Origin: an uncultured Thermoleophilia bacterium
GTDB lineage: Bacteria > Actinomycetota > Thermoleophilia > UBA2241
Assembly (NCBI GenBank): GCA_903862845.1
Contig: CAIOZS010000103.1
Span: 6,187 to 70,186, forward strand
DNA: 64,000 bases
Direction of reading: 5' to 3'
Part shown: piece after piece, positions 17,172-18,679 of the stretch
Numbering within the stretch: position 1 is the stretch's first letter
Layout of the letters: every line of letters starts with the position of its first letter
Translations under genes and position numbers: made by a program
Notes under the pieces: generated by a model
What the model was told of the DNA's origin: nothing
Seen by the model: the letters and a program-made list of their open reading frames with translations, nothing else
The model's database searches: none

Positions 17172-17241
17172 CGTAACCTGCGCGGGCTGCGGTCTGAGCA
17201 TGTCGCAGCGTTGGGGCGCGTCAGGTTGAGGCGCTTGTTAG
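17172..17241. repeat. Copy 1 of a 66-bp structured repeat (conserved arms ACCTGCGCGGGCTGCGG ... GGCGCGTCAGGTT..GCGC..GTTAG, variable centre)
   Basis: Direct sequence comparison with 18611..18679: 17-nt left arm and about 25-nt right arm conserved at identical spacing, while the central 22 nt differ. The arms are mutually complementary (ACCTGCGCG / CGCGTCAGGT). Confidence 0.6.
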
Positions 17242-17261
17242 AAGGGTCGCCCCTCGGCCGG

Positions 17262-17828
17262 TCACGGCCCGTCGACCTGGAGCGTGAGACAGTACGAGGT
17301 CTTGCCCGGCGTCTGCTTGCTCGCACTCACGACTGCGGCGAAGTCGCCCACGATATCGCTGTCCCCCGCGGGCTGTCTGCCGATGAAGCGGCCCTGGATC
17401 CAGATGTCCGCCTCGCCGGTCTGATCGGCGGGTCCATAGGTGCCGTCGGTCCAGGCAGTGCCCACTGCGACAGAGCCTGCCGGGAAGGGGACGGGACCGT
17501 CCCGCAGCCAGGAGGCCATGCCGGGGACGCTCCACGCGGCATCGATGCCGTGGCGGCTCACTTCGACTGCGGTCGAACCGGCACCCGACATGGCATCGAA
17601 ACGGAGCGAGCCGAGCGTTTCCACGTGTCCGTCGCGCACGGACTTGAGGGCGATGATGCCGCCCGGCTCACCGCTCGGGGTGAGTGTGAAGACGTGGACT
17701 TCGCGGCCCTGGAACTGGAGTACGGGACCGTGCTTGACCGTCACCGACGGCTGCTTGGCAGCGCTCCCGCAGGCGCTGGCAAACGGCAGCAGCATGAGCA
17801 GGCCGACAACGATGGCAAACCGCCGCAT
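17262..17828 (-). CDS. Hypothetical lipoprotein
   Basis: MRRFAIVVGLLMLLPFASAC signal peptide with a lipobox Cys. No family recognised. Confidence 0.55.
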   Translation of the reverse strand: MRRFAIVVGLLMLLPFASACGSAAKQPSVTVKHGPVLQFQGREVHVFTLTPSGEPGGIIALKSVRDGHVETLGSLRFDAMSGAGSTAVEVSRHGIDAAWSVPGMASWLRDGPVPFPAGSVAVGTAWTDGTYGPADQTGEADIWIQGRFIGRQPAGDSDIVGDFAAVVSASKQTPGKTSYCLTLQVDGP

Positions 17829-18069
17829 TCCCCCCACTCCTTCTAACGCACCGCGCATGAGCGGACGCGGCAGCGCTTACTGAGTTACTGAGTTCATAAT
17901 ACCTGCTGGCGTTCTGCTCGGATGCGCTTGTTGGGCACTCCGCTTCAGCCCCCTCAGGCCGCCACAGATTCGGCTACTATGTGAGCTGTCGAACGCGGCT
18001 GCGCGCCTGCTGGACGCCAGCCTCCACTGGCCAGCACTTCGGAAGAGAGACAAGAACCATGTTCAGAGG

Positions 18070-18545
18070 GATGAGGCGCAAGAGGCAAGACCTCTCGGAG
18101 ACGGAAACGATCGCCATGCATGCTGCAGTCCTGCACCTCGGGGGTCTTGGCTGTGCACGGTGATGACGACTAGCCCTATGCGGTCCCCCTGAGCTTCGCC
18201 TGCGAAGACGGCAAGCTCTTCTTTCACTCTGCGAAGGCCGGCCACAAGGTCGATGCTCTCGAGCGCAAGGAGAAGGCCTCGTTCTGCGTCATAGCTGCAG
18301 ACGACGTCGTGCAGAGCACGTTCACCACGCACTTCCGGAGTGCCGTCGTCTTCGGCAGGGCGAGGGTGGTCACGGACGACAGCGAGAAGAGACACGCTCT
18401 CGAATGCCTCGCGAAGAAGTACTCGCTCGACTACCTCGAAGCGGCGGGCTCCGAGATTGATGGCGAATGGAAGAGAGTGTGCGTGATAGAGCTCGCCATC
18501 GAGCACATGACCGGCAAAGCCGCCATTGAGATCGTCAAAGAGCGC
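18070..18545 (+). pseudogene. Pyridoxamine 5'-phosphate oxidase-family (FMN-binding split barrel) gene, inactivated by a frameshift and an in-frame TAG
   Basis: MRRKRQDLSETETIAMHAAVLHLGG then a frame change; continuation LAVHGDDD*PYAVPLSFACEDGKLFFHSAKAGHKVDALERKEKASFCVIAADD.. The expected GDDGYPYAVP has become GDDD-stop-PYAVP. Confidence 0.65.
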
Positions 18546-18610
18546 GCCCACCGTAGACACGCAGGTGATGTGGCCCGTCGCCGTGTCGTGATGTGCCTAA
18601 CGTCCGGCGC

Positions 18611-18679
18611 ATCACCTGCGCGGGCTGCGGCTGCAGTCCATTCGAACGCTCAGGCGCGTCAGGTTCATGCGCATGTTAG
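18611..18679. repeat. Copy 2 of the 66-bp structured repeat
   Basis: catcACCTGCGCGGGCTGCGGctgcagtccattcgaacgctcaGGCGCGTCAGGTTcatGCGCatGTTAG. Lies between the pseudogene end and the 3' end of the restriction enzyme gene. Confidence 0.6.

Follow-up and report, generated by a model that had tools for sequence, protein, structure and literature searches.

Very probable integron attC sites in an integrase-less cassette cluster of an uncultured Thermoleophilia bacterium

Results and discussion

A cluster of three related sites

A pair of short repeats in the genome of an uncultured Thermoleophilia bacterium (a 64,000-nt stretch of contig CAIOZS010000103.1, hereafter the window, to which all window coordinates refer) was found to belong to a group of three elements that are, very probably, integron attC sites forming an attC cluster that has no integrase nearby (CALIN). 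The three sites are co-oriented on the minus strand of the window, which is thus the top strand of the array, and lie within 1.5 kb. They are listed here in array order, together with the units that they delimit and the adjacent insertion sequence (IS), sites 1 and 2 being copies 1 and 2 of the initial annotation, and R1 being a covariance model built from 21 copies of the element.

18602-20879, minus strand: type II restriction-modification (R-M) unit, ending in site 2; methyltransferase (MTase) 19581-20879, restriction endonuclease (REase) 18713-19579
18595-18681, minus strand: site 2, putative attC after the REase gene; model R1 78.6 bits (13.5 bits on the plus strand)
17848-18600, minus strand: putative cassette with a PNPOx-family pseudogene, bounded by two G|TT points
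17841-17936, minus strand: site 3, putative attC, more divergent and new to this analysis; model R1 34.9 bits
17164-17846, minus strand: putative lipoprotein cassette; lipoprotein-like open reading frame (ORF) 17262-17828, 188 aa
17157-17243, minus strand: site 1, putative attC, last of the cluster; model R1 81.7 bits
15832-17164, minus strand: ISAzo13-family IS; transposase 15865-17103, Pfam DDE_Tnp_ISAZ013 462 bits

Sites 1 and 2 had been described as two copies of a 66-bp element with conserved complementary arms and unrelated centres. The arms are exact at the positions originally reported, with ACCTGCGCGGGCTGCGG at 17176-17192 and 18614-18630, its only two exact copies in the window (seven matches at up to three mismatches versus 1.84 expected), and GGCGCGTCAGGTT at 17215-17227 and 18653-18665, the offset between the copies being 1438 bp for both pairs. 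Comparison of the two copies bore out that their centres are unrelated, and pairing between the arms was confirmed, a single T being bulged out. The similarity nevertheless runs further outward than 66 bp, and a repeat finder together with copies from other genomes delimited an element of 87 nt (17157-17243 and 18595-18681) that spans CTAA(C/G) to GTTAG. When the window copies were set beside 18 copies found elsewhere, the edges of the family had a sharp onset at YYAAC and an end at GTTRRVY, with unrelated flanks.

Site 3 was highly significant (E=3.5e-8 over 180 kb; 2e-9 with filters off) and retains the GCGCAT/ATGCGC helix and the GGTGC spacer, along with an extrahelical C at position 16 and the two terminal (R) boxes. 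The two original copies do flank a segment with the lipoprotein gene and the PNPOx pseudogene, as first noted, but this segment is made of two units separated by site 3, from whose R' box the start of the lipoprotein gene lies 18 nt away with GGAG in between. A filter-free search with the model detected no further credible sites in the 13-23 kb region of the window. At least two clustered attC sites and no integrase nearby, the defining features of a CALIN, were both found in the window, whereas intI and attI beside the array, which define a complete integron, were not.

Architecture of the sites

The published definition of attC comprises RYYYAAC and GTTRRRY ends, an imperfect hairpin, a length of 57-141 bp and a variable terminal structure (PMC5027507). 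The top-strand consensus of the family (window minus strand) is GCCTAAC-AA-GCGCGT[C]AACCTG[A]CGCG-loop-CGCGCAGGTTACGCGC-GGTGC-GTTAGGC. Among 124 sites found with model R1, AAC occupied positions 5-7 of the RYYYAAC-like R'' box in 121-122, and GTT occupied positions 1-3 of the GTTRRRY-like R' box in 120-122; the remaining, variable positions showed the respective purine and pyrimidine preferences. Site length ranged from 85 to 102 nt (modes 90 and 87), within the 57-141 bp range, and the loop was the least conserved part.

A further rule for attC sites places extrahelical bases, G16 and T23/24 of the bottom strand, on the L'' arm with a 6-bp stem between them (PMC5027507). The first bulge of the family was a top-strand C at position 16, equivalent to bottom-strand G16, in 114 of 122 sites, and the distance from R'' to this bulge is therefore canonical. 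The second was found at position 23, after a 6-bp stem, in 113 of the 122 (A in 69, G in 35 and T in 9). In the window the bulges are C16/A23 in site 1, G16/A23 in site 2 and C16 in site 3.

Covariation argued for a conserved hairpin: in the 124 sites, compensatory changes occurred in 15 of 23 pairs, with 259 double-change cells versus 107 in shuffles, in an alignment that was fitted to the model and so is tilted towards structure, although the margin is large. None of 500 shuffles matched the observed value, and 88.7% of the cells were paired versus 25-37% in slid registers. The same analysis on a first alignment of 21 sequences had been uninformative, since the search pattern fixed the inner arms, and was for this reason repeated on the model-found sites. 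Folded as DNA, the sites reached -15 to -23 kcal/mol. No Rfam family covering the sites was detected.

The terminal boxes could be assigned in all three window sites. Site 2 has R'' GGCTAAC (18681-18675) and R' GTTAGGC (18601-18595), with the predicted crossover G|TT between 18601 and 18600, and site 3 has R'' GCCCAAC (17936-17930) and R' GTTAGAA (17847-17841). Site 1 carries R'' TTCTAAC (17243-17237), but at its R' position (17163-17157), where the IS terminus and target triplet lie, the sequence is CTTAGAA, so that its bottom-strand cleavage triplet is AAG and not AAC.

A family of sites in co-oriented arrays

A scan of bacterial and archaeal genomes, one for each species, with a relaxed two-arm pattern returned 23 loci (numbered with the prefix L). 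The full element was present in 18 of these, 16 of which lie in metagenome-assembled genomes (MAGs) labelled Thermoleophilia, Actinomycetota or Actinomycetes. The remaining five (L005, L007, L008, L009 and L015) had the inner-arm pattern only, without the outer boxes, and were rejected as chance matches. A home-made scan for attC sites in general, based on AAC...GTT with paired boxes, was dropped because matches were just as numerous in shuffled sequence.

The 124 sites identified with model R1 in the window and 18 related loci form dense single-strand arrays in the latter (L022, about 14 sites in 8 kb; L004, about 15 sites; L113, 18 sites in 10 kb), with a median spacing of 597 bp. The initial annotation had proposed a genome-wide search and had regarded chance as the probable explanation should there be neither further copies nor conservation in relatives; the finding was clearly the opposite, with 18 further copies of the same arms elsewhere. 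Because of these copies and of the 124 family members, the similarity between the sites is far beyond chance.

Arrays of the same attC family were also observed on a contig labelled Alphaproteobacteria (L004 and L018, both from CAWAIR010000018.1) and on one labelled Armatimonadota (L010). MAG labels are fallible, and these arrays reflect either mislabelling or mis-binning, or horizontal spread of the arrays. In L027, from a close relative of the window organism, we also observed a solitary attC-like site (262-351, minus strand; 27.6 bits, E=2e-6) beside an acetyltransferase gene, which may represent the insertion of a single cassette.

Cassette logic and array polarity

If crossover occurs at G|TT, the TTRRRY that follows each site belongs to the next cassette and should therefore complement the R'' of that cassette. 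In agreement, R'' of a given site and R' of the preceding one were complementary at 4/4 variable positions in 81 of 105 pairs (77%), compared with 11% when R'' was set against the in-array R' of its own site and 9% when pairs were drawn at random. In the window, R'' of site 1 (TTCTAAC) complements GTTAGAA (17847-17841) at 4/4 positions, and R'' of site 3 complements R' of site 2 at 3/4. This neighbour complementarity is strand-symmetric and cannot orient the array, the polarity of which was instead deduced from ORF direction, from the arm bearing the bulges and from the end at which integrase and attI are found. Single ORFs lay on the model strand in 63 cassettes, on the opposite strand in 13 and were ambiguous in 29, inverted ORFs thus representing 13 of 76 orientable cassettes. 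The ORFs start about 26 nt past G|TT and stop about 13 nt before R'', the stop codon being the TAA within R'' in 15 cassettes. The bulges occur on the arm expected for the ORF-derived polarity, and integrase and attI lie at the matching end of the arrays.

The proposal of the initial annotation that the repeats could be a pair of recombination sites bracketing a cassette was essentially right, although the system had gone unnamed and comprises three sites, with at least two complete cassettes plus the R-M unit. In the lipoprotein cassette, the ATG of the lipoprotein ORF lies 18 nt past the crossover and its stop codon 18 nt from R'', and in L020 (620-1102) a homologue with 48% identity is itself a cassette, with an attC site on either side. 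The pseudogene of the middle cassette (about 18060-18560, plus strand; Pfam Pyridox_ox_2 7.9e-17 for 18177-18560) has an in-frame stop about 100 nt past the ATG at 18060 and is inverted relative to the array, and could therefore not be expressed from an array promoter.

The R-M unit (in PADLOC, 455.9 bits for MTase_II and 215.7 bits for REase_II; Pfam N6_N4_Mtase) may also be a cassette, as suggested by the attC downstream of it. Candidates for a fourth site upstream of this unit (about 21040-21135 or 21197-21258) scored 5.6-11.7 bits with filters off, lacked the AAC and GTT boxes and were rejected. Between the start of the MTase gene and the right junction of the surrounding island (20880-21831, about 950 bp), we observed an ORF without family match (21122-21520, minus strand), and no attC, attI or GTT boundary was found in this interval. 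The cargo of the window cluster, namely R-M genes and a lipoprotein gene whose homologue is a cassette elsewhere, is typical of integrons.

Integrases and a candidate attI in related loci

The integrase encoded in L006 (IntI, 321 aa) scored 466.9 bits on NCBIfam TIGR02249 (cutoff 265), and its homologues were found beside arrays in L014, L021 (where the gene is frameshifted) and L113. In all four loci intI lies upstream of the cassettes and points the same way, and in L006 (2633-5330) and L113 (6496-10966), from two different MAGs, it lies next to pntAB, an adjacency that suggests a fixed chromosomal platform, i.e. a sedentary chromosomal integron. An attI-like sequence, CTGCAGAAATGCAG|TTAG, was found downstream of intI in L006, L014 and L021, and in L021 the seven bases at the junction of this motif are the perfect complement of R'' of the first attC. 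The exact 18-mer CTGCAGAAATGCAGTTAG, preceded by GCTGCAGCAG, also occurs downstream of intI in these loci (L006 2349-2366, L014 823-840 and L021 3773-3790), with an extra ORF between intI and the motif in L014, and is a candidate for the attI of Thermoleophilia integrons. What these sequences show is an association of IntI with attC in the relatives rather than activity. The IntI clade to which these proteins belong is abundant in metagenomes, and its members already carry the automatic name "integron integrase" in public data.

Observations that weigh against the attC and CALIN assignment

Apart from the tilt of the covariation alignment mentioned above, several observations weigh against the assignment. 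Within the sites, the second bulge corresponds to a bottom-strand T in only 57% of cases, with G on the top strand in 29%. The R-L spacer, which in published attC sites usually has 5-6 unpaired nt per arm (PMC5027507), here holds a 6-bp helix (GCGCRT/AYGCGC) that is conserved and covaries (GC/AU), with 2 nt (AA) beside it in one arm and 5 nt (GGTGC) in the other; the published rule reads "usually", and the spacer may be an atypical variant of attC rather than a failure to match it. Bottom-strand stability and purine richness showed no signal: the mean bottom-minus-top difference in folding free energy was -0.04 kcal/mol (Wilcoxon p=0.70), and top-strand GC skew (-0.009) and AT skew (+0.078) lacked the reported bias. 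Both have been described as tendencies of attC sites from mobile integrons and not as strict criteria.

Within the window, no intI-like ORF was detected in the 64 kb, the best tblastn matches having E values of 0.55 and 1.1 (the queries being an IntI1 sequence and the L006 IntI), and the attI motif was likewise not found in the 64 kb. Neither attC nor attI was found upstream of the R-M unit, and no recombination boundary was detected there.

The adjacent IS and alternative explanations

The IS next to site 1 has the terminal repeats CCTTAGAA and TTCTAAGG and is inserted at the R' box of this last attC. The initial annotation placed the start of the repeat 8 nt past the IS; the last box of site 1 instead abuts or overlaps the IS terminus. 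The termini of the IS family, T(T/A)A|GGAG..CTATGCAnAATAACTTGAAC, were defined from 80 relatives, and the TTAG beside the window IS can therefore be attributed to the IS end or to its target triplet. To judge from the sequence, the IS disrupted the R' box of site 1. Among the same 80 relatives (L030-L109), flanks of TTA or TAA were observed, which formed direct repeats in about half of the copies and otherwise read TTA...TAA, resembling a TTAA palindrome that has been split.

That the element is a preferred target of this IS, which would explain their juxtaposition, was among the options first considered. IS1111-attC elements and group IIC-attC introns specifically target attC sites, and resemble the present case in that a mobile element is inserted within an attC of a cassette array. 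The end of the IS coincides exactly with the R' box of site 1, and the family is flanked by TTA or TAA, the former of which is present in R' (GTTAG). Short TWA-like targets are, however, common anywhere, and the transposase is a DDE enzyme of the ISAzo13 family and not of the IS110/IS1111 type. Moreover, a search of the flanks of the 80 related IS copies (transposases 59-95% identical), covering up to 1.5 kb and using the family-specific model, found none that adjoins an attC site of this family (0/80), in contrast to the attC association of IS1111-attC elements and group IIC-attC introns. Targeting by the IS is thus very unlikely to account for the element.

Still less credible is a REP- or MITE-like non-autonomous repeat, spread by a transposase (e.g. 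RAYT) or by an IS and without a role in cassette capture, as the initial annotation also envisaged. A short imperfect palindrome repeated in intergenic DNA, with one copy abutting an IS, would fit such an origin, but the window holds only three copies in 64 kb and these are adjacent and co-oriented rather than dispersed. No target-site duplications flank the elements, and the copies in relatives are confined to arrays in which all sites strictly share one orientation and a unit usually holds a single ORF, in some cases beside integron integrases. The unit ends also carry cassette-specific complementary boxes, which REP and MITE elements lack.

It is equally improbable that the hairpins are mainly transcription terminators or mRNA-stabilising stem-loops conserved for expression, which their position directly after stop codons and their stable DNA folds could suggest, given that no T/U tract follows the stems, a terminator scan had no match at the sites, and the invariant AAC/GTT termini, the position-specific bulges and the complementarity of R'' with the preceding R' have no terminator rationale. 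Linkage of the sites to IntI and attI is also consistent. The sites may have a secondary, terminator-like effect.

Proposed mechanism and relation to known systems

By analogy with studied integrons, the attC bottom strand (window plus strand) would fold into an imperfect hairpin in which R' (RYYYAAC) would pair with R'' (GTTRRRY), the inner arms corresponding to the L box and stem. Two extrahelical bases of the L'' arm, in the family consensus G16 and T23, would indicate to an integron integrase the strand to be used, and cleavage would occur between A and C of the AAC triplet. Recombination between two attC sites would then excise a circular cassette, and recombination between attC and attI would insert one. 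The three window sites were probably assembled by such an integrase acting in trans, or inherited as a fragment of an array. Sites 2 and 3 are presumably still recombinogenic, while site 1 appears to have been inactivated by the IS that replaced its R' box.

The sites share with known attC sites (59-base elements), such as attCaadA7 of mobile integrons and the repeats of the Vibrio cholerae superintegron (VCRs), the end boxes, the imperfect hairpin, the bulged bases 16 and 23 separated by a 6-bp stem, the variable loop, the length and the position right after a promoterless ORF, as well as the high within-array similarity seen in sedentary integrons. They differ from them in the structured spacer, in having T at the second bulge in only part of the sites, in the lack of strand skew and in the actinobacterial host of the Thermoleophilia type.

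CALIN have been proposed to arise by secondary-site insertion, by loss of intI or by rearrangement (Cury et al. 2016, PMC4889954). The window cluster resembles those described in that work in that two or more attC sites occur without intI in the vicinity, the cassettes are few, an IS is present and the cargo is unrelated to antibiotic resistance, but lies in a strain-specific 7.8-kb island without a recognisable proximal boundary.

In inverted-integrase integrons of the Treponema denticola type, intI and the cassettes are on the same strand, and these integrons are recognised by IntegronFinder 2, according to a passage quoted in PMC13323075. The relatives L006, L014, L021 and L113, with a co-directional intI and attI past its 3' end, can be likened to this type by gene arrangement alone, and the host lineage differs; the platform belongs to the relatives and the window has none.

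Integron attC sites in CALIN are known, and less ordinary here are the host lineage and the structured-spacer variant of the site. IntegronFinder 2.0 detected no complete integrons in Actinobacteria among complete genomes (PMC9024848), and a 2026 study of permafrost MAGs reported a "virtual absence" of integrons in Actinomycetota (PMC13323075), while a review does list Actinobacteriota among the integron-bearing phyla. No paper describing integrons in Thermoleophilia was found in the literature searches made. It is conceivable, though we would rate it slightly below an even chance, that Thermoleophilia have their own lineage-specific large sedentary chromosomal integrons, with a co-directional intI by pntAB, a conserved attI of the form CTGCAGAAATGCAG|TTAG, homogeneous attC sites of 87-90 nt and a spacer between the R and L boxes structured as a helix, and that the window cluster is a by-product of these, its cassettes having been deposited or rearranged at a chromosomal hotspot.

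For the window itself, the assignment turns an unexplained repeat into a defined system in which the limits of each cassette can be set with single-base precision. The genes for R-M, PNPOx and the lipoprotein would be horizontally acquired cassette cargo, and an IS can be seen disabling the terminal site. The site family also ties the window genome to large integrase-bearing arrays in Thermoleophilia MAGs. A soil actinobacterial lineage with active-looking integrons would, if confirmed as such, bear on how the cassette pool is partitioned among soil phyla. The paired central spacer would offer a natural attC variant for mechanistic study and, if functional, would add to the structural rules known for attC recognition. 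Because the integrases are already auto-annotated as "integron integrase", we regard these loci as an under-described extension of a known system and not as the discovery of a principle.

Genomic setting

The attC cluster lies in a strain-variable island delimited by BLAST junctions with a relative:

14066-21831, no strand assigned: island with the attC cluster, 7.77 kb, between Abhydrolase_9 and EamA genes

In L027, where the Abhydrolase_9 protein is 89% identical, 223 bp (11909-12131) stand in place of the island. The GC content is 0.605-0.665 across 14-22 kb versus about 0.69 elsewhere in the window. The corresponding spot between Abhydrolase_9 and EamA is occupied in L028 and L029 by a nucleotidyltransferase/HepT toxin-antitoxin pair (L028 7041-8100), and other genes lie beside EamA in L110-L112; no attC sites were found at the island locus in L027, L028/L029 or L110-L112. 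The interval between Abhydrolase_9 and EamA is a strain-variable hotspot. Metagenome contigs with the same lipoprotein were 100% identical to the window, including the IS, and provide no empty-site comparison.

RNase PH proteins 95% identical to that of the window are labelled Thermoleophilia or Actinomycetes by NCBI, which places the host in the lineage with the large arrays.

Two other ORFs of the island (14284-15282 and 15279-15806, both on the plus strand) share repeated N-terminal modules of about 60-75 aa with 52-61% mutual identity; the first ends in a SHOCT domain, and both face the opposite way to the cassettes. Elsewhere in the window, the sole Rfam match was an M-box (magnesium) riboswitch (29834-30003, minus strand; 150.6 bits versus a gathering score of 44), in the neighbourhood of which relatives carry MgtE and Nramp genes.

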